Origin: a virus | Taxonomy: Duplodnaviria; Heunggongvirae; Uroviricota; Caudoviricetes | Virus record (IMG/VR): IMGVR_UViG_2671180349_000007 | Strand: one strand, 5' to 3' | DNA length: 36,567 nt | Part shown: positions 14,692 through 32,730 of the stretch, piece by piece | Layout: each line of letters starts with the position of its first letter | Position numbering within the stretch: position 1 is the first letter of the stretch | Position numbers and translations under genes: made by a program | The notes under the pieces: generated by a model | What the model was told of the DNA's origin: nothing | The model's database searches: none | Seen by the model: the letters and a program-made list of their open reading frames with translations, nothing else

Positions 14692-15273
14692 ATGAAAGGC
14701 GAAGTGAAAGAGCGCGGCATGATTTTTAACGATGAGATGGTCAGGGCAATTCTTGGCGGGAATAAAACACAGACTCGCAGGATTGTTGAAGAAAAATTCT
14801 ATGGACGGGCAGTGGCCGCAGAGTTGCTTGCTAAACATTGTCCATATGGTCAACCGGGAGATCGTATTTGGGTTCGTGAAACCTACCGGGTACATGGCAA
14901 AGCGACGGACGTCGCAACGCTGGTTTATCGCGCAAGCGTGCGTAACTCCTGGACAGAACAAACGCACCGGGTTCCGGTTGAGGTTTGTAATAAGCCAGTA
15001 TCAGAAAAGTGGACGCCATCAATTCACATGCCGCGCTGGGCATCGCGCATTCTTCTGGAAATTACCAACGTGCGCGTTGAGCGGTTGAACGATATCAGCG
15101 AATGCGATGCAAGGGCTGAGGGCGCACCAACAGAATCGACCCTCATTGGCGATAAGCATTACCCAGGTTTCCGCAGCCTATGGAAATCAATTTATGGCGA
15201 AGATAGTTGGAACGCTAATCCTTGGGTGTGGGTAATAGAGTTTGAGCGTATTCAGGGGGCAACCAGTGAGTGA
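14692..15273 (+). CDS. conserved prophage protein, ASCH/PUA-like (193 aa)
   Basis: AAGGGGG RBS; motifs FNDEMVRAILGGNKTQTRR and GDRIWVRET. Confidence 0.6.
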   Translation: MKGEVKERGMIFNDEMVRAILGGNKTQTRRIVEEKFYGRAVAAELLAKHCPYGQPGDRIWVRETYRVHGKATDVATLVYRASVRNSWTEQTHRVPVEVCNKPVSEKWTPSIHMPRWASRILLEITNVRVERLNDISECDARAEGAPTESTLIGDKHYPGFRSLWKSIYGEDSWNANPWVWVIEFERIQGATSE

Positions 15274-15532
15274 GTCAAAATGCCAAATTAATGGCAACAA
15301 GATAGAACCGTGCGCGGCGTTGGCACAATCCCTGGAGCATGACGCTGAATACACGACGCGAAAAGGTCTGCTGAAATACAAAATCTATAACCATGAATTA
15401 ATTCATTCACAAGACCTGATCATGCTGCGGTCTGGTGAATTTTCTAAATCGCCTATTCGAGTTTCATTTTGCCCGTTCTGTGGTGAAAGTCTGAAAACGT
15501 GGGAAGCGGAGGCAACCAGTGAGCAAAATTAA
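15266..15532 (+). CDS. small protein with C-terminal CPFCG zinc-ribbon-like motif
   Basis: GTG start overlapping the previous stop; start uncertain. Confidence 0.4.
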   Translation: MSESKCQINGNKIEPCAALAQSLEHDAEYTTRKGLLKYKIYNHELIHSQDLIMLRSGEFSKSPIRVSFCPFCGESLKTWEAEATSEQN

Positions 15533-16220
15533 CTATCAGGCACTACGTGAGATAGCAAAACAGGCAACACAGGGCGAATGGGTCGCGTTTATTTCGACGG
15601 GTACAGGTACGTATGCTGTGCATACGCCCGGTGATAAACGATGTGAAGATGTTATCAAATGGACCGGCTTTGATGGACTGAAAAACGCAGAGAACAACGC
15701 TCGTTATATTGCCGCATTCAACCCAAAGGTTGCACTGGAGCTACTTGGTGAAATTAAGCGCCTGGAGGACACAAATATTGATGCTATGTGCCGAATAGCA
15801 CCGCTTGAGACTAAGCTCGCGGCTCTGGTGGCAGAGAACGCCGGGCTGAAACACGCAATGGCTGTAACTCTTGATCATGTGTCGGTCACGGATGCAGGGC
15901 AGGCCGGAGTTGCTGCAATGATTATCAACGATGCCCTACACCACAGCGAAACTCCAGCTACCGATGCTTTTCTGGCTGAAATTCGTGCGGAAGCACGCAA
16001 CGAGGGGATTAACTATACCGCCAGCCGTCTTGCTGCTGCGTTCAATCACGGATTTATCAATAAGTCTTTGCGTGAAGTTTTCGACGTTACGCGCATGATT
16101 CTGTCAGCGAAAGAAGAGTTGGCTAATGAACCGTACCCGATTGATGGCCTGTCCGGTGAATATGCGGAGAAATCCCTTGAAGAATGGGCGGAACAGATTC
16201 GCAAAGGAGCTGACAAGTGA
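15519..16220 (+). CDS. Ead/Ea22-like prophage protein
   Basis: Central coiled-coil and C-terminal TPATDAFLAEIRAEA motif; GTG start. Confidence 0.6.
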   Translation: MSKINYQALREIAKQATQGEWVAFISTGTGTYAVHTPGDKRCEDVIKWTGFDGLKNAENNARYIAAFNPKVALELLGEIKRLEDTNIDAMCRIAPLETKLAALVAENAGLKHAMAVTLDHVSVTDAGQAGVAAMIINDALHHSETPATDAFLAEIRAEARNEGINYTASRLAAAFNHGFINKSLREVFDVTRMILSAKEELANEPYPIDGLSGEYAEKSLEEWAEQIRKGADK

Positions 16221-16627
16221 AGAAGATGATTTTTGTCGCGGCATTGTTGGTGAATATCCAACAAGTGCATGCTTCAGCAGCTATTGTAGCCTCTACCGCC
16301 GCGACTACGGCTGCTGTAGCTGCTGCGAACTCTGCGAATATCGCAAACCAACAGGCACAGCGTGCTGCTAATGCATCAGCCAGCGTTCACCCAATCACCA
16401 TTAAGAGCAGTAAGCAAAATCTGGGATTCATAACGTGCGGCACGCGTTCTAATGAAGCTGTAGGCTCACTGGGATGTACGGTATATGGCGATAGTGAGCG
16501 CAGAGAAATTCCATGGAAAACGTGGCCCGGATACGTTCTCGGATCGAAGCTCCCTGCCAGCTACGAAGTAAATGCCGTATCGTTTGATCACTATAACGGC
16601 GTGGCAACTGTCTATTTTACATACTGA
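16217..16627 (+). CDS. secreted protein with N-terminal signal peptide (136 aa)
   Basis: MKKMIFVAALLVNIQQVHA signal-like N-terminus followed by an Ala/Thr-rich linker. Confidence 0.55.
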   Translation: MKKMIFVAALLVNIQQVHASAAIVASTAATTAAVAAANSANIANQQAQRAANASASVHPITIKSSKQNLGFITCGTRSNEAVGSLGCTVYGDSERREIPWKTWPGYVLGSKLPASYEVNAVSFDHYNGVATVYFTY

Positions 16628-16635
16628 GGCTCCGC

Positions 16636-17301
16636 ATGAAATTCTCCAAATTTTCTGAGTTGGTGAATCGTATTTTGTCCAACAACCACAGCCATCGTCG
16701 CGATATGGATGTAACGATCGTTGTTCATTCGCCTGGCAGCATTGGTTCAACACCATCAGTTGAGGTTCAGTCAATTCACGCTGGTTTTGATTGGGATTCC
16801 GGGAAAGTGCTGATTTTCCCAGCACAGCCACTGACCACGCTAACACCAGAACAGATTACTGATATTACTGATAGTGTGCGCAAAGGTCAGTCCTGGCACG
16901 CATATCAGGAATACAAGAAGCATAAAGAGCAGTTGGAAAAATTATCGATTGAACTTGATGCCGCAAAACAGCGCATTGCAGAGCTGGAGGGTAATTTCAC
17001 GGTGCTGGCAGTGGAGAATGCCTCAATGAAGCTGTTTATCAGGGGTTGTTGCTACGTGTTTGATGGCGAGCAGGATGAAATATCTGATGCGTATATCTGC
17101 GCAAGAGACGGAGGCATGCCGCAAACCCCGGCTACAGATGCTCTCCTGGCTGATGTACGGGCGGTGGCGTTTGACGAACTTCGCGCGGCGTTTGTCAGGC
17201 ACGCAAAAGTTGCAGGACTGGATGATGCCGATACCGTAACGCTTAAGGAAGTGACAGAAGCATTGTTGCATTGTGCGGAACAGATTCGCGCGCCTGAATA
17301 A
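16636..17301 (+). CDS. Ead/Ea22-like paralogue
   Basis: Shares the C-terminal TPATDALLADVRA motif with the 15519 gene. Confidence 0.55.
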   Translation: MKFSKFSELVNRILSNNHSHRRDMDVTIVVHSPGSIGSTPSVEVQSIHAGFDWDSGKVLIFPAQPLTTLTPEQITDITDSVRKGQSWHAYQEYKKHKEQLEKLSIELDAAKQRIAELEGNFTVLAVENASMKLFIRGCCYVFDGEQDEISDAYICARDGGMPQTPATDALLADVRAVAFDELRAAFVRHAKVAGLDDADTVTLKEVTEALLHCAEQIRAPE

Positions 17302-17397
17302 TTAAATTTAGTGTTGTAAATAAAATTTAATCCTTAACCGGAGGGATTTCTGCACCCTCATAACATCAGGAGGCCGCCCGAGGGGCGGTAATGAAAA

Positions 17398-18111
17398 ATG
17401 GCTGAATTAACAAAAGAACAATTAATCGAAGAAGCTAAATTAAAAATAGCGATTGCGAAATGCCATCCCAATTCAGGCGTGGCACGAGTAGAGGGTGAGT
17501 TATTCAAAATTGCACTGGCATCGCTGGAAGCAGATCCAGTTGCTTATATTTTCAAACATCCGGCCGGGAAATTATTCTGGGCTTTAACGGATGAAAGCAA
17601 TAAAGAGCAAGCGGACGTTATTCCTGTTTATGCTGCCGCGCCTGCGTCGGTTGTGCCGGATAATGCATCAGAGCCTCTTGCTTATGCTTACAAAGAGCTT
17701 ACGCCTGAGATTATGCGCAACCATTTAGCTGTATTCGAGCGATATGGAATAGCCCCAAACGATAGCTCTACCACAATTCAGGCACTGCGAATCGCGCTGG
17801 ATGGCATAGAGCGGAGCGACGCCATGCTTCATGGTGCCGAACCTGTAAGCCAAACTTACAAGTTGAACCAGCTATCGGGCAACTCTCCGGTAACTCCGGA
17901 TGATTGGATAAGCTGTAGTGAGCGAATGCCGGATAGCAAAACAGCTGTTCTTGTTGCCAGGGAGTTTGACAGGAAAGGTGACTGGCGAATGAAGTGGGCG
18001 ACTTACATACCGGGACATCCTGACGCTAATGATGGTTGGATAATTCCTGGTGCGTCGTGGATTCCATCACACTGGATGCCGTTACCAGAACCGCCGCAGG
18101 AGGCAAAATGA
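17398..18111 (+). CDS. DUF551-type phage protein (237 aa)
   Basis: C-terminal WISCSERMP...WMPLPEPP signature. Confidence 0.6.
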   Translation: MAELTKEQLIEEAKLKIAIAKCHPNSGVARVEGELFKIALASLEADPVAYIFKHPAGKLFWALTDESNKEQADVIPVYAAAPASVVPDNASEPLAYAYKELTPEIMRNHLAVFERYGIAPNDSSTTIQALRIALDGIERSDAMLHGAEPVSQTYKLNQLSGNSPVTPDDWISCSERMPDSKTAVLVAREFDRKGDWRMKWATYIPGHPDANDGWIIPGASWIPSHWMPLPEPPQEAK

Positions 18112-18368
18112 TGGATGTAAAAGAGAAGGTTTTGCAGGTGATGCGTTCCCGTGCTGCCCTGCAAGAGAAAGCTCTCGGCGGGGAATATCCATTCACGATA
18201 GCAACCTGGAATCTGCGGTTGGCAATGGAGAAGGAATTTCCTGATGAAGAATGGCGTTCGGCAGATTTGCGCAAAATTCTTATTGGGATGGCTAAAGACG
18301 GAACAGTATCCAAAGATACCCATGCCAGCCGGATTGGTCAGGCGGTATGGAGACTGGAGGTGAGGTAA
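18108..18368 (+). CDS. hypothetical protein (86 aa)
   Basis: ATG overlaps the previous stop (ATGA). Confidence 0.4.
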   Translation: MMDVKEKVLQVMRSRAALQEKALGGEYPFTIATWNLRLAMEKEFPDEEWRSADLRKILIGMAKDGTVSKDTHASRIGQAVWRLEVR

Positions 18369-18444
18369 TGAGCTGGCCTGAAGCATTTGCGATTGTAGGC
18401 GTAGCTATGGCGATTGCCGCTATTTTTATCTTCTGGGGGTAACG

Positions 18445-18678
18445 ATGGGAAAATTAACTTTTGTAGTCGAATTTGAGGATGGCAAAGAGCCACCTGTTAG
18501 CGCCAATCTTGATGTTGCTGGTGGCAGGCTGGTTTCGGTTCTATTTGGTGATTACCGCGACGACTTCTTTCAGCCTGAAGAAGTTGATGTAGTGCGAGAA
18601 GCATTAAACGAGCTAAGTGTTGATAACGATGATGCTCATGCGGAAATCATCAAAAAAATGGAACTGCTAACTCACTAA
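18445..18678 (+). CDS. acidic hypothetical protein (77 aa)
   Basis: ORF in track; same operon. Confidence 0.4.
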   Translation: MGKLTFVVEFEDGKEPPVSANLDVAGGRLVSVLFGDYRDDFFQPEEVDVVREALNELSVDNDDAHAEIIKKMELLTH

Positions 18679-18856
18679 ATTATCAATTATGGTGCTATCA
18701 CCTACGACACCGAGAGAAAATTTATAATGTCAAAAGTAAATGTTTTGATTTTTTCAGCAATTGTTGGCTTTGGTTTTACTGCCGGAGTGCAGATTTATAT
18801 TGCGTGGGAAAAAATCATCAACTACGCATGGAGTTGTTTTATTAAGTGAGGTAAGT

Positions 18857-19150
18857 ATGTGGAGAGGTAATAGTCATGGCAAAAGCCAGATGATACTTAC
18901 CGAATATAAGCTAGACCACAAAACCAATAAATCACGCTCAGTATATTTGCTCCGGCACAATAGCCGCGTAAGAAATACCTTGCTGGAACAAAATCTGACA
19001 GTTGAAATGGATAATTACGGTGGATTCAAGCCAACAATTTCGCTTGATGATTTTCCTCGTGGTTTAAGCGAAAGAGAAGCAATGCTGAAATTAGCAGAAT
19101 GGCTACAAAGATTAAGCATTGCTATTGAAGATAACTGGTCTGAACCTTAA
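18857..19150 (+). CDS. hypothetical protein (97 aa)
   Basis: GAGG RBS 6-7 nt before ATG 18857; a 39-aa hydrophobic ORF (18727-18846) lies just upstream. Confidence 0.4.
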   Translation: MWRGNSHGKSQMILTEYKLDHKTNKSRSVYLLRHNSRVRNTLLEQNLTVEMDNYGGFKPTISLDDFPRGLSEREAMLKLAEWLQRLSIAIEDNWSEP

Positions 19151-19156
19151 ATTTAT

Positions 19157-19531
19157 ATGATGACACTAAAACATTTTCTTGACCGCCCATTATGGGCGGC
19201 AGCCGCAGGCTATGACTTTAATTATATGGATTGCATGTCTTATACTGCCAATGCATACGACCATTCGTTCAGCCTGCTGTTTAATTCTTTAAGAATATTG
19301 CCGGAAACAGAAGTTGGAGAGCTTCATTTATGGCTATTGGGCTTTATCGCGGCTGTCGTTGGTATTGCTGTATGGCCTTTTATTTTCTGGCTGGTGGCTG
19401 TTGTAGTGTGGTTTAAGTGCAAGACATACCGGAAAAAGTATTTCTTAGGTGATGGAATGACTGATATTGCCAAAATGAACATTGAAAAATGGACTAAGGA
19501 ATGTGAAAAGAAATGGCGCAAAAAGAAATGA
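19157..19531 (+). CDS. membrane protein (124 aa)
   Basis: Hydrophobic segment LWLLGFIAAVVGIAVWPFIFWLVAVVVWF and basic C-terminus. Confidence 0.5.
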   Translation: MMTLKHFLDRPLWAAAAGYDFNYMDCMSYTANAYDHSFSLLFNSLRILPETEVGELHLWLLGFIAAVVGIAVWPFIFWLVAVVVWFKCKTYRKKYFLGDGMTDIAKMNIEKWTKECEKKWRKKK

Positions 19532-20172
19532 CTACTCTAACGACAGCATACTTACAGCAATTGGTATTTTTTGCAGGCGAGGCTACTTGTCATCCTGACG
19601 CAAACTATTTATTGGAATTTGAGAGGTTAGCGTCACCCGGTATCGTTCTGGAACTGGCCCAACAGGTGCTGGCCTTGAGACAAAAAGAGCAACATGAAAG
19701 TAATACGTGTAGATTGAATTTTGAGCAGTGGCTGGAACAGCAACGCGGAAAAATCGATGTGGACTGTGGTTGTGTGTCCACTGAAACATTCATGCACTGG
19801 CTGCGGGTAGCTTACGAGGCTGGCAACTATCCGGATATTCCGGATAGTTCGGTGCCAGCGCCAGGAAAGGGCGTCACCGGTGAACGTATCCGCATTAAGC
19901 CGCATGTTTATCGCGAACTGGTTAACCGTCTCCACGATACAGCGATCAAGTGTGCTGGCACCCAGCAATTACGAGAAAGAATTAGCCGTGTTTTGGGCGA
20001 CGTTATTACGCCATATCATCATAAACAAGCCGAGAAAAGCGGTCTGGAAAGGGGGCATCTTGAGGCAGCATTAAACATTAAGCCGGGGCATACGCTTGGC
20101 ATTATTGATGCACTGTTGGTTCATAAGATGGCCAGGGCTTTATTGTCGTTGGTAGGGGGCAATGACAACTAG
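19513..20172 (+). CDS. hypothetical protein (219 aa)
   Basis: ORF in track; overlaps the previous gene by 19 nt. Confidence 0.5.
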   Translation: MAQKEMTTLTTAYLQQLVFFAGEATCHPDANYLLEFERLASPGIVLELAQQVLALRQKEQHESNTCRLNFEQWLEQQRGKIDVDCGCVSTETFMHWLRVAYEAGNYPDIPDSSVPAPGKGVTGERIRIKPHVYRELVNRLHDTAIKCAGTQQLRERISRVLGDVITPYHHKQAEKSGLERGHLEAALNIKPGHTLGIIDALLVHKMARALLSLVGGNDN

Positions 20173-20256
20173 GAAAAAATCGCATTACTGGTGGCAAAGC
20201 CATAACTACTGATACAATATTTCTAGGTTAAAGATCTGGCATTAGGTAGAGATAGC

Positions 20257-20721
20257 ATGTTTCTTCATATCAATCCCGATTGGGCATCAGCTATTGCGGC
20301 ATTTGGGTCAGCAATAGCTGCTTTTATTAGTTTGCGCACAAGTAAAAAGCTTGGATTATTCGATAAGGAAAAATTTTATAGTGAAGCATTGATAAACTTT
20401 GCTGATAGGGCAAATAAAATAGCAACAGGAAAAGCTGGATCAGACTGGGATGTTAATGACGCAAGTAATATAATTCTTTCACTAAATGCCGCAAAAGAAA
20501 CTATTGAAAGTGCGCCAAAACCTATTCGAGAGCAACTAAAACAATATTACAAACATAATCTTTGCCATGAGATCATAACCGAATTAGAGGCTCACTCTCC
20601 CCCAGATTCAGTAATTGTAAGAGAACCATCAGAGTATGAAGGCAAGATCATGGGATTGTGGGATGAGATTAAAATATTTCTGGGTTATACAGTGGTATCA
20701 GAAGCAGACCTTGAAGATTAA
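20257..20721 (+). CDS. low-GC membrane-anchored hypothetical protein (154 aa)
   Basis: Gene is visibly AT-rich relative to its neighbours; N-terminal hydrophobic helix WASAIAAFGSAIAAFISL; lies directly upstream of phd. Confidence 0.55.
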   Translation: MFLHINPDWASAIAAFGSAIAAFISLRTSKKLGLFDKEKFYSEALINFADRANKIATGKAGSDWDVNDASNIILSLNAAKETIESAPKPIREQLKQYYKHNLCHEIITELEAHSPPDSVIVREPSEYEGKIMGLWDEIKIFLGYTVVSEADLED

Positions 20722-20828
20722 AGTTTGGTGTGACCACATCATTTCATCAATGATGCCCGAAGTGGGGAGTTTGACGATTGTCCGGTGATTTAAGCTGCAA
20801 AGTGCTGGTGCTTTATGCTTGTGAAGTT

Positions 20829-26026: not shown

Positions 26027-26028
26027 AA

Positions 26029-26045
26029 ACTTGCTCTAATAAATT
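26029..26045 (+). promoter_or_regulatory. C1 operator at the start of the ImmI-like region
   Basis: CTTGCTCTAATAAATTG, 15/17 match to consensus, 3 nt after the pacB stop. Confidence 0.55.
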
Positions 26046-26178
26046 GTGTTTTTTGACTGCCGATGTTACATTGAACCTGACCTCTTGCGCCTTGAGGCAT
26101 TTTCGGTTTATGCTTATCAGGCACCTCAGTAAAACGGGTGCCGGGATTGGAACCCCGGATAATGTCAAAGGCGACACA

Positions 26179-26200
26179 GACGCCAAAAGCGTCTTTTTTT
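26179..26200 (+). terminator. intrinsic terminator or attenuator
   Basis: GACGC-caaaa-GCGTC followed by seven T residues. Confidence 0.55.
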
Positions 26201-26224
26201 GTGTCATGCCATCGCACGGCCATA

Positions 26225-26320
26225 CGTAGCGTTTAGCTCAGAGATCAATGGTAGTGCTGGCTGGGCTGCCGAAAGGCAGGCCGGTTCCCTTTGACGCCGG
26301 TAGTTCCAACCCAGTCAGTG
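26225..26320 (+). ncRNA. c4-like antisense regulatory RNA (boundaries approximate)
   Basis: Multi-stem structure (ctggg...cccag enclosing a GAAA-tetraloop hairpin and a ccgg hairpin) exposing GTTCCAA/GGTTCC, complementary to the two GATTGGAACC loops at 26145-26154 and 26334-26343; position upstream of icd-ant as in P1 ImmI. Confidence 0.3.
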
Positions 26321-26385
26321 CTACCGCCATTGAGATTGGAACCTCACGCGGTAGCTCCTTAACTTAGTCAAAGGAGGCTGCCATT

Positions 26386-26607
26386 ATGGCTACTATCCCT
26401 ACCCCAACTCATCCTGAATTTATCTGGCGCTTTTACTCCTGCCAGAAACGTCACTATCACTTCGTTATTGCACCGACAGAAGATGAGGCTCGCTCTCAGC
26501 TTCCTGATGCACCCTGTATTTTCTCCGCCCGTTTTTCTACTGATTCGCGCAATTCTCTCAGTTACTGGTGCCTCCCTGTTAACACTTCTGCTCAGGAGGG
26601 ACTATGA
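26386..26607 (+). CDS. icd: Icd-like protein (73 aa)
   Basis: AAGGAGG RBS; 73-aa ORF overlapping the ant start (ATGA), the P1 ImmI arrangement. Confidence 0.55.
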   Translation: MATIPTPTHPEFIWRFYSCQKRHYHFVIAPTEDEARSQLPDAPCIFSARFSTDSRNSLSYWCLPVNTSAQEGL

Positions 26608-27659
26608 GAACGTCATTAGTCACCCGTGAAGAGATGATCGAGGCAATTGAACAGCACACTGCCTGTATCAGTACCAGGGATATACCGGGCGTTATTGCCA
26701 ACTACTTCATGATCACCAAACAACTTTACCGGAGAAAGGACAAGAACGCTGTTCACCGCATTCTGTTGTCTGATATCCGCGAATACCTGCTCGAACAGGG
26801 GCATCTGAATTACGCAACCGTCGCAGCCGAAACACGCAAGGAGGCACACAGAATGAAAGCAAGCAAACCAGATGTTGTCGTTACAAAGCCTTTGACAGCA
26901 ACCACACCAGCACCGGTCATGGATGCTATCCCCAACACCGGAGACACAATCGACAGCCAGACGCTGTTAAAGATGGTTAATGAGGCGCGTAAGTTATGTG
27001 GGGAACCATTAGTAAGAAATAATAAGTTTATTGAGAAGGTTGTGGATGAGCTTGAAGGTGAGACCTACACAAAAAGTGTAGGTCGCAAAAATGGTGCAAA
27101 CATAGACATTATCACCATGACTTTCAAACAAGCCCTGCGAGTCGCCGCGCGCGAGTCAAAAGCGGTCCGCCGTTCGCTGATCGACAAGCTGGAGGAGTTG
27201 CAGCAGGTTAGCGCTGCTTCTCCAGCGATCCCCCAAACATTGCCCGAAGCTCTGCGCCTGGCTGCCGAACTGGCTGAACAAAAGCAACTTCTGGAACAGA
27301 AAGCCCACCAGCTAAATCAGCAGCTGGTGGCCGCAGCCCCCAAAGTCGATTTTGCCGACCGGGTATCAGTGGCTAAGGGGATCCTGATTGGAAATTTTGC
27401 AAAGGTTGTTGGACTTAAGCAAAACGCGCTGTTTGCCTGGTTACGGGAGAACGGCATCCTGATTGCGTCCGGCGGACGTAAAAATGTGCCATTCCAGCAG
27501 TACATCAACGCCGGGTATTTCACTGTGAAAGAAGTGGTGCTAGATGATGAAGATGGCTACCAGATACGGCTGACGCCTCAATTAACGGGGAAAGGCCAGC
27601 AGTGGTTGACGCGTAAGCTGCTCGATGCTGGCTTGTTAAAACCGGTGGCGGCTGAATAA
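26604..27659 (+). CDS. ant: antirepressor Ant, KilAC-type C-terminal domain
   Basis: 351-aa ORF coupled to icd; C-terminal ILIGNFAKVVGLKQNALFAWLRENGIL region typical of phage antirepressors. Confidence 0.7.
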   Translation: MRTSLVTREEMIEAIEQHTACISTRDIPGVIANYFMITKQLYRRKDKNAVHRILLSDIREYLLEQGHLNYATVAAETRKEAHRMKASKPDVVVTKPLTATTPAPVMDAIPNTGDTIDSQTLLKMVNEARKLCGEPLVRNNKFIEKVVDELEGETYTKSVGRKNGANIDIITMTFKQALRVAARESKAVRRSLIDKLEELQQVSAASPAIPQTLPEALRLAAELAEQKQLLEQKAHQLNQQLVAAAPKVDFADRVSVAKGILIGNFAKVVGLKQNALFAWLRENGILIASGGRKNVPFQQYINAGYFTVKEVVLDDEDGYQIRLTPQLTGKGQQWLTRKLLDAGLLKPVAAE

Positions 27660-27666
27660 TGGAAGA

Positions 27667-27688
27667 ATGCCCGGTTGATGCCGGGCAT
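27667..27688. terminator. hairpin between convergent ant and c1
   Basis: ATGCCCGG-ttgatg-CCGGGCAT followed by an A/T-rich stretch. Confidence 0.45.
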
Positions 27689-27691
27689 AAT

Positions 27692-28543
27692 TTATTGCGC
27701 GCTTTCGGGGTTGTCGTTTACTGGCTGCCCCTTCTTAGTTTTACGGCTGCGCGTAACTGATGCGGCTGACTTAACCTTTTTCTCTTCGCGAGTGATGGCA
27801 ATTTGTTTTTTTACATTTTCAATATCTGCCAGGCGATATATTTTTGCCTGCGGCCAGCGGTCGCAGATGATCGGTTCTATGGAGTCATAAAGGCTAAATT
27901 TTGCTTTCTCGAATTCACCGTTGATGATGATTCCATCACGGAGAGTTTCATCGCAGATAAACACGCCACACAGCGGCACATGGTAACTAACTGATTTACC
28001 GTTATTGTAGTTAGGACTACTGGAGATGTAGTGAACGCGCAGCATTGTTTCGCTAAAGCCGTGTACGCGCATACGGAATTTTTCATCCTCCGGGTACTGC
28101 TTCATTAGCTCTTTTGTTGCTTCCAGGTTCTCTATGTATTTCGCACTGTGCTCATTGAACCCCGCGCTTTTTTGGATGCGAATGTCCTTATCAATCAGAT
28201 GAATAATGCGGCCAGCGGTCATGTTGACGCTGTTTACAGCTTCTGTCTGATAGGTCGTAACCTTACGCACACCGCGAAGGATGTTAGGCACAGGATATAA
28301 AATAGTCTTTGGGATATTTAGGTCTGGGTACTGTTCCAGTTCCCGCGCCATTAAAGTCCATTTATCAATTTCAGCCTGAATGCTGTCCGTTTCTTTGAAC
28401 GGCAGAACGACAACCGGGCGTACAGGACGACCGTCGCTGGCGGCATCAACGTGTTGGGCGCGTGCAACAGCTTTTTTTAGAAAGAGATCCCTGAAGCTGA
28501 CGAACTCCTGGTACAGTTGTTCGCCGTAGACATAATTTATCAT
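27692..28543 (-). CDS. c1: C1 master repressor
   Basis: 283-aa protein MINYVYGEQLYQEFVSFRDLFLKKAVARAQHVDAASDGRPVRPVVVLPFKE... recognised as P1 C1. Confidence 0.95.
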   Translation of the reverse strand: MINYVYGEQLYQEFVSFRDLFLKKAVARAQHVDAASDGRPVRPVVVLPFKETDSIQAEIDKWTLMARELEQYPDLNIPKTILYPVPNILRGVRKVTTYQTEAVNSVNMTAGRIIHLIDKDIRIQKSAGFNEHSAKYIENLEATKELMKQYPEDEKFRMRVHGFSETMLRVHYISSSPNYNNGKSVSYHVPLCGVFICDETLRDGIIINGEFEKAKFSLYDSIEPIICDRWPQAKIYRLADIENVKKQIAITREEKKVKSAASVTRSRKTKKGQPVNDNPESAQ

Positions 28544-28863: not shown

Positions 28864-29101
28864 AATTATGCCTCACTGTATTGACAACACAGAGCCTGAA
28901 GCTCTGACCTACTGTTTCACCCATGATCCATGCTGGGGTAATCTAACAACATTGCGCTGTGTGTAAGATGAGCAATGCATAGCTGTAATGCCGTTGTATA
29001 AGGTTTCCCTGTTTGCTCATTTCCTTCTGAGCCGCTCTACAACGCTGAAGACACATTAAATAGTGAATCCAAAGCCGTATTACGTAACGGCGGCAAAACT
29101 A

Positions 29102-29118
29102 TAATTTATTAGAGCAAT
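29102..29118 (-). promoter_or_regulatory. C1 operator upstream of coi (Op99 cluster)
   Basis: TAATTTATTAGAGCAAT, reverse complement of the consensus. Confidence 0.6.
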
Positions 29119-29184
29119 TGTCAAACAACTATGAAAAACAATCCAGTTTTTAGCTGGTGGAGTGGGATTTTTCTCTCAAAATTT

Positions 29185-29201
29185 ATTGCTCTAATGATTC
29201 T
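29185..29201 (+). promoter_or_regulatory. C1 operator upstream of coi (Op99 cluster)
   Basis: ATTGCTCTAATGATTCT. Confidence 0.6.
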
Positions 29202-29244
29202 TGATTTTTGTGCGCAGCTGGACGTAAACTCCTATTCGGACCTG

Positions 29245-29278
29245 ATAACTTCGTATAGCATACATTATACGAAGTTAT
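29245..29278. other. loxP recombination site
   Basis: Exact 34-bp ATAACTTCGTATA-GCATACAT-TATACGAAGTTAT. Confidence 0.98.
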
Positions 29279-29349
29279 CTTAAGGGTTATTGAACATGAT
29301 CAATTTACCTGTAAATCCATACAGTTCAATACCTTATCAGGTCAAATAG

Positions 29350-29371
29350 TGATCACTTGATCATTTGATCA
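29350..29371. promoter_or_regulatory. Dam-site cluster (three TGATCA hexamers at 8-bp spacing) in the cre upstream region
   Basis: TGATCACTTGATCATTTGATCA; consistent with methylation-sensitive cre promoter control described for P1. Confidence 0.5.
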
Positions 29372-29467
29372 AGGTTGCGCTACGTAAAATCTGCGAAATG
29401 TTGGCAGTGTTAGTGCTCCAGATTTCGCGTAGCGCACTTAGCACCACCAATCAATCAGAGGTGAAAA

Positions 29468-29689
29468 ATGGGATATTCAGCTGCTAAAGTGTCCACTCAT
29501 CTTGAGCTTGAGAAAAACCGTGGTTACTGGCGGGCAAAAGGGTTTGAGCGTGATAGTTACCAACTGTCATTATCTCGCGGCGAAGAGAAAATAGAACGCA
29601 CGCGCGGTCGCTGGCGTTTCTATGACGAGAACCATAACCAGGTAAAGGCAGAGCCAATCCTGTACACTCTGCTGAAAACAATAATTTAA
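29468..29689 (+). CDS. hypothetical basic protein (73 aa) between loxP and cre
   Basis: GAGGTG RBS; preceded by a long imperfect palindrome (29377-29435). Confidence 0.45.
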   Translation: MGYSAAKVSTHLELEKNRGYWRAKGFERDSYQLSLSRGEEKIERTRGRWRFYDENHNQVKAEPILYTLLKTII

Positions 29690-29708
29690 CTTGATCATGA
29701 GGTGATGA

Positions 29709-30104
29709 ATGTTTAATGGCCTGACAGATGCCAAGGTAAACGCCTTACTGAACGACGCAAAACAAAAAGCTGCTAACCCTGGAACGAATGAAAATGAACG
29801 TGCTATGGCTGTTGCAATTTGGGAGTTAGCAGAAGAAGTAAAGCGAAACCGCTTACTATACACTCGGGTTTACCAGCAATTTGATGGTGCGAGCTGGATA
29901 GATATCGAAGAGGCTGAATATGCAACATGCAAAAAAGAAAAAAAGATTGTTCGGATTTTGCATAAAGCAGCAACCCCAATCACTGTAGAAATCCCCGATC
30001 ACAGATATTTCGAGAACGATGATCTACCAGGGGATGTGATTCGAATTATTGATGAGATACTTCATGAACAAGGCTTAACTGTTAAAATTACGCATAATAA
30101 ATGA
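29709..30104 (+). CDS. hypothetical protein (131 aa) immediately upstream of cre
   Basis: ORF visibly more AT-rich than cre; its stop overlaps the cre ATG (ATGA). Confidence 0.5.
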   Translation: MFNGLTDAKVNALLNDAKQKAANPGTNENERAMAVAIWELAEEVKRNRLLYTRVYQQFDGASWIDIEEAEYATCKKEKKIVRILHKAATPITVEIPDHRYFENDDLPGDVIRIIDEILHEQGLTVKITHNK

Positions 30105-31132
30105 CTAATTCGTTAACCGTTCACCAAAATTTGCCTGCATTGCCGGTCGATGCAACGAGTGATGAGGTTCGCAAGAACCTGATGGACATGTTCAGGGATC
30201 GCCAGGCGTTTTCTGAGCATACCTGGAAAATGCTTCTGTCCGTTTGCCGGTCGTGGGCGGCATGGTGCAAGTTGAATAACCGGAAATGGTTTCCCGCAGA
30301 ACCTGAAGATGTTCGCGATTACCTTCTATATCTTCAGGCGCGTGGTCTGGCAGTAAAAACTATCCAGCAACATTTGGGCCAGCTAAACATGCTTCATCGT
30401 CGGTCCGGGCTGCCACGACCAAGTGACAGCAATGCTGTTTCACTGGTCATGCGACGGATCCGAAAAGAAAACGTTGATGCCGGTGAGCGTGCAAAACAGG
30501 CGCTGGCGTTCGAACGCACTGATTTCGACCAGGTTCGTTCACTCATGGAAAATAGCGATCGCTGCCAGGATATACGTAATCTGGCATTTCTGGGGATTGC
30601 TTATAACACCCTGTTACGTATAGCCGAAATTTCCAGGATCAGGGTTAAAGATATCTCACGTACTGACGGTGGGAGAATGTTAATCCATATTGGCAGAACG
30701 AAAACGCTGATTAGCACCGCTGGTGTAGAGAAGGCACTTAGCCTCGGGGTAACTAAACTGGTTGAGCGATGGATTTCTGTCTCTGGTGTAGCTGATGATC
30801 CGAATAACTACCTGTTTTGCCGCGTCAGAAAAAATGGTGTTGCCGCGCCATCATCCACCAGCCAGCTATCAACTCGCGCCCTGGAAGGGATTTTTGAAGC
30901 AACTCACCGATTGATTTACGGGGCAAAAGATGACTCTGGTCAGCGATACCTGGCCTGGTCTGGACATAGTGCCCGTGTCGGTGCCGCGCGAGATATGGCC
31001 CGCGCCGGAGTTTCAATACCGGAGATCATGCAAGCTGGTGGCTGGACCAACGTAAATATTGTCATGAACTACATTCGTAACCTGGATAGTGAAACGGGGG
31101 CAATGGTGCGCCTGCTGGAAGATGGCGATTAG
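30101..31132 (+). CDS. cre: Cre site-specific tyrosine recombinase
   Basis: 343-aa protein nearly identical to P1 Cre (MTNSLTVHQNLPALPVDATSDEVRKNLMDMFRDRQAF...). Confidence 0.98.
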   Translation: MTNSLTVHQNLPALPVDATSDEVRKNLMDMFRDRQAFSEHTWKMLLSVCRSWAAWCKLNNRKWFPAEPEDVRDYLLYLQARGLAVKTIQQHLGQLNMLHRRSGLPRPSDSNAVSLVMRRIRKENVDAGERAKQALAFERTDFDQVRSLMENSDRCQDIRNLAFLGIAYNTLLRIAEISRIRVKDISRTDGGRMLIHIGRTKTLISTAGVEKALSLGVTKLVERWISVSGVADDPNNYLFCRVRKNGVAAPSSTSQLSTRALEGIFEATHRLIYGAKDDSGQRYLAWSGHSARVGAARDMARAGVSIPEIMQAGGWTNVNIVMNYIRNLDSETGAMVRLLEDGD

Positions 31133-31149
31133 CCGTTCATTTGCGCTTG

Positions 31150-31166
31150 ATTGCTCTAATCATTTG
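31150..31166 (+). promoter_or_regulatory. C1 operator downstream of cre
   Basis: ATTGCTCTAATCATTTG. Confidence 0.55.
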
Positions 31167-31182
31167 ATATTTATGGTGACAC

Positions 31183-31494
31183 ATGCGGAAGGATTTCAAA
31201 ATAGACGGAAAATATGTGGTGCTGTCTGTAAGCTCTCAAATTCAGTCACCATCTGTCATTGTCACCGTAAAGTTGAGCGATAGGATGCCTGATATCGACT
31301 CGATATCTGTTGCGTTCCCCGTTAAAAGCATGCGGAGTGCTGAACATTTTGTGATGAATGCAACGGAGGAGGAAGCACGGCGCGGGCTTACTAGAGTGAT
31401 GGCGGAATTTGGCGAACTCCTGGGTAAGGTAAACAATGCCCTTTCAATCAGTTCAGCAAGATCCAAAGCGTTAACAGCTTCCATGATGAAATAA
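31183..31494 (+). CDS. Cra-like (cre-associated) protein, 103 aa
   Basis: ORF directly downstream of cre and its operator; assignment by position only. Confidence 0.45.
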   Translation: MRKDFKIDGKYVVLSVSSQIQSPSVIVTVKLSDRMPDIDSISVAFPVKSMRSAEHFVMNATEEEARRGLTRVMAEFGELLGKVNNALSISSARSKALTASMMK

Positions 31495-31705: not shown

Positions 31706-31731
31706 CATTGGCGGCCGAAAGGCCGCCTTTT
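31706..31731 (+). terminator. hairpin with T-run on the plus strand
   Basis: GGCGGCC-gaaa-GGCCGCC followed by TTTTTT. Confidence 0.45.
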
Positions 31732-31735
31732 TTAA

Positions 31736-32689
31736 TCATTCAGCCGCCACCGGTTTTAACAAGCCAGCATCGAGCAGTTTACGCGTCAACCACTGTTGGC
31801 CTTTCCCCGTTAATTGAGGCGTCAGCCGTATCTGATAGCCATCTTCATCATCCAGCACCACTTCTTTCACTGTGAAATATCCGGCGTTTATGTACTGCTG
31901 AAACGGTACATTTTTACGTCCGCCGGACGCAATCAGGATGCCGTTCTCCCGTAACCAGGCAAACAACGCGTTTTGCTTAAGCCCAACAACCTTTGCAAAA
32001 TTTCCAATCAGGATCCCCTTGGCCCCTGATACCCGGTCGGCAAAATCGACTTTAGGGGCGGCGGCCACCAGCTGCTGATTTAGCTGGTGGGCTTTCTGTT
32101 CCAGAAGTTGCTTTTGTTCAGCCAGCTCGGCAGCCAGGCGCAGAGCTTCGGGGAGTGTTTGGGGAATCACTGGAGAAGCAGTGCTAGCCTGCTGCAATTC
32201 CTCCAGTTTGTCGATCAGCGAACGGCGGACCGCTTTTGACTCGCGCGCGGCAACTCTCAGGGCTTGTTTGTAGGTCATGGAGATAGTTTCAGATGTTGTG
32301 TTGTTTAATTTTTGCACTACGAAAATTTCGTAGTACTCACCATCCAGTTCATCCTTAACTCTGGCAATAAAATCATTATTGCGAACTGGTTTTTCGCTAC
32401 ATAATTTCCGCGCTTCATTGACCATCTTTAACAGCGTCTGGCTGTCGATTGTGTCTCCGGTGTTGGGGATAGCATCCATGGCCGTTGCTGGTGTGGTTGC
32501 TGTCAAAGGCTTTGTAACGACAACATCTGGTTTGCTTGCTTTCATTCTGTGTGCCTCCTTGCGTGTTTCGGCTGCGACGGTTGCGTAATTCAGATGCCCC
32601 TGTTCGAGCAGGTATTCGCGAATATCAGACAGCAGGATACGGTGAACCGCGTTCTTGTCCTTTCTCCGGTAAAGTTGTTTGGTGATCAT
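31736..32689 (-). pseudogene. second ant-like antirepressor copy, mosaic, 5'-truncated by transposon insertion
   Basis: 317-aa ORF matching residues 35-351 of the 26604 ant gene except for a divergent central block; its first codon abuts the transposon IR at 32693. Confidence 0.65.
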
Positions 32690-32692
32690 GAA

Positions 32693-32730
32693 GGGCTCCG
32701 TTTGGGAAACGGAAAATATTGTACGTTAAG
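32693..32730. repeat. transposon left 38-bp terminal inverted repeat
   Basis: Perfect inverted match to 36530-36567; the tnpA stop lies inside it, as is typical for the Tn3 family. Confidence 0.8.

Follow-up and report, generated by a model that had tools for sequence, protein, structure and literature searches.

A stretch of viral DNA of 36,567 nucleotides (nt), assigned to the Caudoviricetes and held in IMG/VR as record IMGVR_UViG_2671180349_000007 (hereafter the window), carries a Cre-lox locus of the phage P1 type, in which an additional gene, termed orf131, stands directly before cre. The canonical 34-mer loxP was found by exact string match at 29245-29278, where it is also the inverted repeat I3, and is followed on the + strand by a 73-amino-acid (aa) open reading frame (ORF), cra, at 29468-29689, the 131-aa ORF of orf131 at 29709-30104, and the 343-aa ORF of Cre at 30101-31132. 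The distance from loxP to the cre ATG (30101) is 822 nt, and the stop codon of orf131 overlaps that ATG on the + strand in the tetranucleotide ATGA (30101-30104); the ORFs, the spacing of about 0.82 kb and the overlap had all been given correctly in a preliminary description of the window. The product of cra is basic (isoelectric point, pI, 9.6), and the gene holds the promoters P2cre (29544-29573) and P1cre (29661-29685). Apart from its first 24 nt (MTNSLTV versus MSNLLTV in P1), cre is of the P1 type, with 98.5% aa identity between the products and a ratio of nonsynonymous to synonymous substitution rates (dN/dS) of 0.05. The gap from the cra stop to the cre ATG amounts to 7 nt in P1 versus about 0.41 kb in the window, and a three-way alignment places a P1 gap of about 404 nt opposite orf131. 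Apart from an orf131 cassette located between the cra stop and the cre start, the interval is the usual loxP-cra-cre regulatory region of P1.

The preliminary description had started from the premise that only promoters lie between loxP and cre in P1 and had counted two extra ORFs in the window. The premise was mistaken, as cra is annotated at 207-428 of the P1 reference (NC_005856), with the cre start at 436; the 1986 entry X03453 already lists cra as ORF1 (aa 1-73), and the P1 literature places the gene between loxP and cre (PMC2409434). The 73-aa ORF shares 94.5% aa and 94.1% nt identity with P1 Cra (YP_006471), has the same length of 73 aa and a dN/dS of 0.11, and matches PHROG 804 (E = 1.2e-33). 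Its position, about 0.2 kb from lox and including P2cre and P1cre, is collinear with P1 nt 1-428, and both marks of a Cra protein, full-length homology and a place between loxP and cre, were found in it. Among phage records searched by megablast, P1, P7, phiW39, SJ46, RCS47 and others match the interval in two pieces, the first of which bears the annotated cra ("Cre-associated protein"). The gene is preceded by the Shine-Dalgarno (SD) sequence AGAGGTG, whose anti-SD duplex was calculated at -7.1 kcal/mol. Because a homologous cra sits at the same place in P1, the 73-aa ORF is not extra: it is the known cra gene of phage P1 and not an insertion. Comparison of the loxP-cre interval with P1 thus left one of the two ORFs, that of 131 aa, without a P1 counterpart. 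A literature search returned no publication on the function of Cra. The 73-aa Cra is called "creatininase" in many plasmid records, and Cre appears as "GST-loxP-cre recombinase fusion protein" in many phage records; both names look like propagated annotation artefacts.

The P1 annotation was transferred to the window as window = P1 p + 29261 for the part right of loxP, and through blastn coordinates (window = P1 x - 65539) for the operator and promoter at P1 94724-94769. To the left of loxP, the C1 operator Oc1e (29185-29201) and the promoter P4cre lie together at 29185-29230 on the + strand, reading towards cra and cre; the P4cre hexamers predicted from the P1 annotation are TTGATT (-35, 29201-29206) and TAAACT (-10, 29225-29230). 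A LexA box, CTGT-N8-ACAG (29307-29326; 46-65 in the P1 annotation), overlaps the divergent promoter P2coi and is invariant in the alignment. It is followed on the + strand by three TGATCA sites (29350-29371) that overlap the -35 of P3cre (pR1), which is TTGATC at 29365-29370, with the -10 TAAAAT at 29385-29390. The P3cre promoter is said, from the work of Sternberg and colleagues in 1986, to be sensitive to Dam methylation. The Dam motif GATC occurs here at 29351, 29359 and 29367, and the last two are also annotated in P1 as Dam methylation sites of the cre regulatory region; the one at 29351 is specific to the window and reads GACC in P1. Conversely, the -35 of P2cre (29544-29549) loses its GATC in the window, TTGATC of P1 being changed to TTGAGC, and the hexamers of P1cre at the cra end are kept (TGTACA identical; ATTAT changed to ATAAT).

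An inverted repeat at 29376-29436 has 18-nt arms (29376-29393 and 29419-29436, 89% complementary) and a 25-nt loop, and its left arm spans the P3cre -10. Folded as RNA it reaches -32.4 kcal/mol (z = -3.5), and it is conserved in P1; a role as an intrinsic terminator was rejected, as no T-run stands behind it. Apart from the two GATC differences, the LexA box, the GATC sites, the inverted repeat and the annotated cre promoters of P1 are conserved in the window. Both the TGATCA triple and the long imperfect palindrome reported earlier are real, and, as judged from the alignment, they are conserved P1 regulatory sequence and not part of the insertion. A scan of 28900-31300 with Rfam gave only a sub-threshold chance match to a snoRNA.

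Taken as a whole, the locus resembles the P1 cra-cre operon (Sternberg et al. 1986; Lobocka et al. 2004; X03453, NC_005856) in its loxP, LexA box, GATC cluster over P3cre, inverted repeat, cra, P2cre/P1cre and cre, and in the presence of c8 downstream. It differs from P1 in the orf131 cassette that replaces the 7-nt cra-cre spacer, in the Salmonella-type ancestry of the 34 nt that end cra and the 24 nt that open cre, and in a probable coupling of cre to orf131 instead of cra.

The orphan gene orf131 and its carriers

Five full-length alleles of orf131 were compared, namely those of the window, of pAVS0578-B, and of three Salmonella contigs. The gene is more AT-rich than cre, as had been noticed before: its GC content is 0.402, and 0.333 at third codon positions, versus 0.506 and 0.497 for cre, 0.464 for cra and 0.478 for the window, and a GC content of 0.40 against flanks of 0.46-0.53 recurs in both carrier lineages. 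An SD sequence, GAGGTG (29699-29704, + strand), lies 4 nt before the ATG and is conserved in all alleles, with an anti-SD duplex of -6.9 kcal/mol, on par with that of cra. No stop interrupts the reading frame in any of the five alleles, which differ by up to 12% in nt. Allele pairs with a synonymous divergence (dS) of 0.28-0.46 gave dN/dS values of 0.12-0.30, and the closest pair, separated by 19 substitutions, gave 0.65. Most of the variation falls within residues 63-90, at 13 of 28 positions, and residues 31-62 and 91-131 are nearly invariant. The product is a mildly acidic protein of 15 kDa (pI 5.6).

Owing to the dN/dS of 0.12-0.30 among diverged alleles and the strong SD, orf131 is read from these comparisons as a real gene under purifying selection. 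That it is instead non-functional, either an ORF that arose by chance in AT-rich filler or a remnant in decay, annotated for its length alone, is extremely unlikely. Such a view would fit the want of homologues, domains and a confident fold, the frameshift alleles at an A-tract, and the ratio of the closest allele pair. It is contradicted, however, by the low ratios of all pairs with enough substitutions, by the strong and conserved SD, by N- and C-terminal thirds that hardly vary, and by the maintenance of a 131-codon frame through five alleles in DNA of 40% GC, where stops arise easily.

The frameshift alleles point to an A6-G-A7 tract inside the gene (29931-29944, + strand), where a -1 shift leaves a 92-aa product. 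The allele P0006/L023 carries this shift, and its adjoining cre is intact. A second "allele" (L021, 83%) shifted in the same tract was rejected, since its contig holds several other frameshifts and probably suffers from sequencing error. The tract may be prone to slippage.

The sole family match of the protein is PHROG 20152 (E = 4e-92), which has no assigned function; this family, like the "hypothetical protein" that RefSeq lists for pO111_3-type plasmids (NC_013370.1 and relatives), is the same protein, with nothing that differs. No match was found in Pfam, NCBIfam, PADLOC or the sequences of the PDB. Within the defence and anti-defence models of PADLOC-DB, the best hit was JetC (E = 0.01, 11.7 bits), below what would assign the protein to a family; it covers a coiled-coil stretch and was dismissed as compositional. 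A word-indexed search of 5.8 billion proteins returned six clusters, all representing the same gene, and an exhaustive phmmer search of 1.84 billion representatives disclosed no distant relatives; long repetitive proteins that phmmer matched in many short stretches were judged compositional. Neither a recognisable DNA-binding domain nor homology to accessory factors of the Xis, helix-turn-helix or Fis type was detected in orf131, no similarity to Cre extends past the N-terminal hexapeptide, and no paralogue occurs in the window or in P1 nt 1-1600 and 60000-94800. Two AlphaFold2 models, with predicted local distance difference test (pLDDT) scores of 53 and 62, have only an N-terminal helical hairpin (about residues 7-58) in common; the fold modelled for the C-terminal half is uncertain, and fold searches returned generic helical hairpins without a specific match. 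A literature search found no published account of orf131 or of the variant operon.

The distribution of orf131 is narrow. Among the PLSDB records that match the interval, 14 of 704 carry the gene; P1, P7, SJ46 and RCS47 lack it, as do about 98% of P1-like plasmids. In 60 of these 704 records, sampled across the set, only two length states were seen save for two partial matches, about 597 bp (the P1 type) or 1001 bp, and no other insert occupied the cra-cre gap of close P1 relatives. Complete genomes of Escherichia coli contain orf131 in 32 of 5426 cases, largely O111:H8/H- together with O103:H2 Shiga toxin-producing E. coli (STEC). Of the 33 matching E. coli records, 30 share 99% identity or more with the window copy, which itself is 100% identical in nt to NC_013370.1 nt 439-839; the carriers are mainly one clonal plasmid lineage of the pO111_3 type. 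No match was obtained by tblastn against 50,697 phage records or in the GTDB representative genomes, and matches in IMG/VR lie in the same P1-like context only; in every orf131 locus recovered, the gene is preceded by cra and followed by cre. A chromosomal copy was also noted in E. coli 06-00048 (NZ_CP015229.1, 1878351-1878751), a strain in which the gene also resides on a 136-kb plasmid; it may represent an integrated P1-like element or a wrong assembly.

Ancestry of the cassette

The second carrier lineage came to light through exact-sequence look-up of orf131 proteins of 89% identity, which led to contigs of about 91-96 kb; the source names of the proteins are Salmonella enterica. These P1-like elements share the order c1, coi, loxP (an identical 34-mer), a 356-aa ORF, cra (71 aa), orf131 and cre (342 aa). 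The operon of this type (L004-L007) agrees with the window in gene order, ATGA overlap, SD and the loxP 34-mer; it differs in the extra 356-aa gene between lox and cra and in the divergence of its members. Cra and Cre of the window share only 63% and 81% aa identity with the Salmonella type (64% and 70% nt), with dS at about 1.3 for cra and saturated for cre. In contrast, orf131 retains 88.5-88.8% nt identity between the window and L004, with a dS of 0.37 (0.37-0.46 across the Salmonella alleles). As orf131 is far less diverged than its flanks, it has crossed between the lineages long after cra and cre had split, and its AT-richness in both lineages marks it as probably foreign to both.

The path of entry into the window can be traced from segment identities. 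A recombinant patch at 29656-30124 on the + strand runs from the final 34 nt of cra through a 19-nt spacer and orf131 into cre, of which it takes in 24 nt. Upstream of it, 29468-29655 is 96.8% identical to P1 and 63.7% to L004, and within it the cra end and spacer (29656-29708) are 66% identical to P1 and 86.8% to L004. The first 24 nt of cre show 70.8% identity to P1, 83% to L004 and 92% to another Salmonella P1-like plasmid, L008; the remainder of cre returns to 97.1% for P1 and 70.8% for L004. Only two stretches are conserved between the lineages, the 3' end of cra (...LYTLLKTII) and the first eight codons of cre, and both switches of parentage lie in them, which implies that the cassette moved by homologous recombination. 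These identities portray orf131 as a mobile cassette allele of the cra-cre gap that would have entered the E. coli P1 lineage through flank homology and not by insertion de novo.

The orf131-less state, in which cra and cre are separated by 7 nt, is found in P1/P7, in the Salmonella plasmids pCVMN1543 and p21-SA00706-0, and in Cronobacter phage JK004. As these diverged lineages share the arrangement of P1, the orf131-less state is the common one and probably also the ancestral one. The reverse order of events, in which the cra-cre operon originally included orf131 and P1 and most relatives lost it by deletion between similar 5' ends of orf131 and cre, was assessed as very unlikely. What favours a deletion is the resemblance of the two gene starts. 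The first six codons of orf131 (29709-29726) read MFNGLT in the window and MFNSLT in the Salmonella and pAVS alleles, and Salmonella-type Cre, like the window cre start (30101-30118), begins with MTNSLT, so that MFNSLT and MTNSLT share five of six residues. Moreover, the P1 cre start ATGTCCAATTTACTGACCG looks like a hybrid, in which ATGT and CTGAC are common to the orf131 start, and the sequence upstream of P1 cre, TGAGTGTTAA, resembles the SD region of orf131, TGAGGTGATGA. However, the codons of the hexapeptides differ (Ser AGC versus TCG; Leu CTG versus TTA/TTG), so no repeat exists at the DNA level to drive a deletion; four separately diverged lineages without orf131 have an identical 7-nt spacing; orf131 has a foreign base composition in the two carrier lineages; and its dS of 0.37 against flanks above 1.1 is unlike that of an ancient resident gene. 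The available data lean towards a derived and patchy occurrence of orf131, with a divergence independent of that of cre.

The preliminary description had suggested that orf131 is a horizontally inserted moron, co-transcribed with cre. It shares with the classical moron of Juhala and Hendrix its presence or absence between neighbours that adjoin each other in relatives, its atypical base composition, and a place where expression in the prophage state is expected. Unlike a classical moron, it showed neither a promoter nor a terminator of its own in a consensus scan, and it is embedded in an operon to which it is probably linked in translation, having spread among relatives by recombination in the flanks. 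The foreign, extra and AT-rich character of the gene stands; the term moron suits it only in a loose sense, and the insertion is better described as arrival by homologous recombination with another P1-like lineage.

In P1-like lineages of Salmonella and Cronobacter (L004-L010), the 356-aa gene stands between lox and cra, at about 1699-2781 of each locus, and its stop codon overlaps the start of cra; it matches PHROG 7674, a family with no assigned function, and has no match in Pfam or PADLOC. As a second cargo gene, it shows that the lox-cre interval gains and loses genes in the wider group. Salmonella phage SJ1 was dismissed as a comparison, for its coding sequences abut head to tail and resemble concatenated genes. 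Variant lox sites were observed in two Salmonella P1-like plasmids, L008 (1244-1277) and L009 (1260-1293), with the spacer ACACACAT instead of GCATACAT; the L009 site has an additional single arm change, the JK004 site has one arm change, and Cre of L008/L009 shares about 84% identity with that of the L004 type.

Expression and possible roles of orf131

All annotated cre promoters, as positioned from the P1 annotation, lie upstream of orf131. The consensus scan gave no terminator-like site on the + strand in 29200-31300 and neither a promoter-like nor a terminator-like site in the cassette, whose 19-nt upstream spacer holds the SD only. Over the 20 nt upstream of cre, the anti-SD duplex was calculated at +1.5 kcal/mol for the window, -2.5 for P1, -1.4 for L004, -2.3 for L008 and +0.7 for JK004. 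In every P1-like lineage examined, the SD of cre is poor or absent, and its start lies at, or at most 7 nt from, the stop of the preceding ORF. These features suggest that cre never possesses a ribosome-binding site of its own and is always coupled to the ORF before it.

With the promoters upstream, no terminator predicted and the orf131 stop overlapping the cre start, co-transcription and translational coupling are the natural reading. It may accordingly be proposed that orf131 would be transcribed with cra and cre from the four annotated cre promoters, that is, P4cre (C1-controlled), P3cre (Dam-sensitive), P2cre and P1cre, and would be translated from its own strong SD. Cre would then be made by ribosomes that end at the orf131 TGA and re-initiate at the overlapping ATG, so that an orf131-to-cre coupling, in which orf131 sets the flow of ribosomes into cre, would take the place of the cra-to-cre coupling of P1. 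On this scheme, translation of Cre probably depends on orf131. The co-transcription with cre that the preliminary description had suggested is consistent with the position of orf131 downstream of all annotated cre promoters.

Regarding function, our best guess, offered as conjecture, is that orf131 encodes a dispensable accessory protein, cytoplasmic and expressed in the lysogen, that acts in conflict between host and phage or in host physiology. The protein would be made at a low level in lysogens; the cre promoters include Dam-sensitive and C1-controlled ones. The joint explanation, which unites a P1 region, a recombined orf131 cassette, shared cre promoters, orf131-to-cre coupling and this accessory-protein guess, is considered to hold with good probability.

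Several points weigh against it. The guess on function is made without a domain, defence-family or fold match. The frameshift allele P0006/L023 beside an intact cre suggests that orf131 is dispensable and, if the allele is real, that Cre is also made without the coupling. The consensus scan missed all + strand promoters in the loxP-cre interval, and because even the known ones escaped it, a weak internal promoter for cre may exist. Which way the cassette travelled, and from which donor, is deduced from sequence comparison, and the Salmonella alleles, being 11% diverged, are not the direct donor. Finally, the likeness of the two hexapeptides may be the trace of a duplication of the cre start at the birth of the cassette, or of a deletion between short repeats in the lineages without orf131.

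Two alternatives would tie orf131 to recombination itself. In the first, it is an accessory factor of Cre-lox, produced in fixed proportion with Cre and binding Cre or lox to tune recombination, for instance by damping Cre, by favouring resolution over multimer formation, or by controlling cyclisation after infection. Every copy is located between cra and cre, the stop/start overlap is typical of functionally linked proteins, the gene adjoins another "Cre-associated" gene with no assigned function, and both carrier lineages use an identical loxP 34-mer. Nevertheless, about 98% of P1-like plasmids, P1 included, run Cre-lox without orf131, the gene crosses lineages whose Cre proteins are only 81% identical, and the frameshift allele stands beside an intact cre. 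As the protein, in addition, has no DNA-binding, Xis-like or recombinase-related domain and a likeness to Cre limited to six N-terminal residues, this proposal is unlikely, and our best guess rates an accessory role as likelier than that of an obligatory Cre cofactor. In the second alternative, orf131 is a natural modulator of Cre-lox, held at a fixed ratio by stop-start coupling and altering the activity, directionality or host toxicity of Cre; it would account for the occurrence of orf131 only directly upstream of cre and only in elements with the canonical loxP, and is judged quite unlikely.

Surroundings of the locus and wider meaning

Outside the interval, two antirepressor-like paralogues were observed in the window, one of 351 aa on the + strand (26604-27659) and one of 317 aa on the - strand (31736-32689). 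They form an inverted repeat of about 1 kb (26705-27670 and 31725-32693) with 91-93% identity, which brackets the c1-coi-loxP-cra-orf131-cre-c8 module of about 4 kb. The left copy has no counterpart at that position of P1, and the right-hand P1 comparison reached nt 1600. Such an inverted repeat could allow inversion or exchange of the whole module. The left copy belongs to a 1.67-kb segment between pacB and c1 (26027-27692), with the 351-aa antirepressor-like ORF and another ORF of 73 aa, where P1 has only about 25 nt. Two further segments in the pmgT-to-phd/doc region, 14784-19811 (about 5 kb) and 20154-20723 (0.57 kb), gave no blastn match to the compared parts of P1 and hold about ten ORFs, including one of 154 aa (20257-20721); a 233-aa ORF (15519-16220) resembles, by eye only, what we take to be the Ead/Ea22 family. 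In the databases, the exact 34-bp loxP also occurs in Lactococcus phage Q33, inside the portal gene, and the interval is matched by single plasmid records of Pseudobutyrivibrio (lox site only), Alicyclobacillus and Nonomuraea; these non-P1 records are probably engineering scars or vector contamination.

On the present evidence, the result is modest and mostly descriptive. Cre-lox is one of the most widely used genetic tools, and the natural control of cre in P1 has been little studied beyond its promoters. The window shows that the operon also occurs naturally with an orphan gene directly before cre, whose translation this gene probably gates. As a narrow-range ORFan, orf131 marks the P1-like plasmids of O111/O103 STEC. 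If orf131 affects Cre, it would offer a new handle on Cre-lox; if it is an ordinary accessory gene, it would provide a clean case in which a cassette of one gene passes between phage-plasmid lineages that have diverged, by way of flank-homology islands of about 30 nt.

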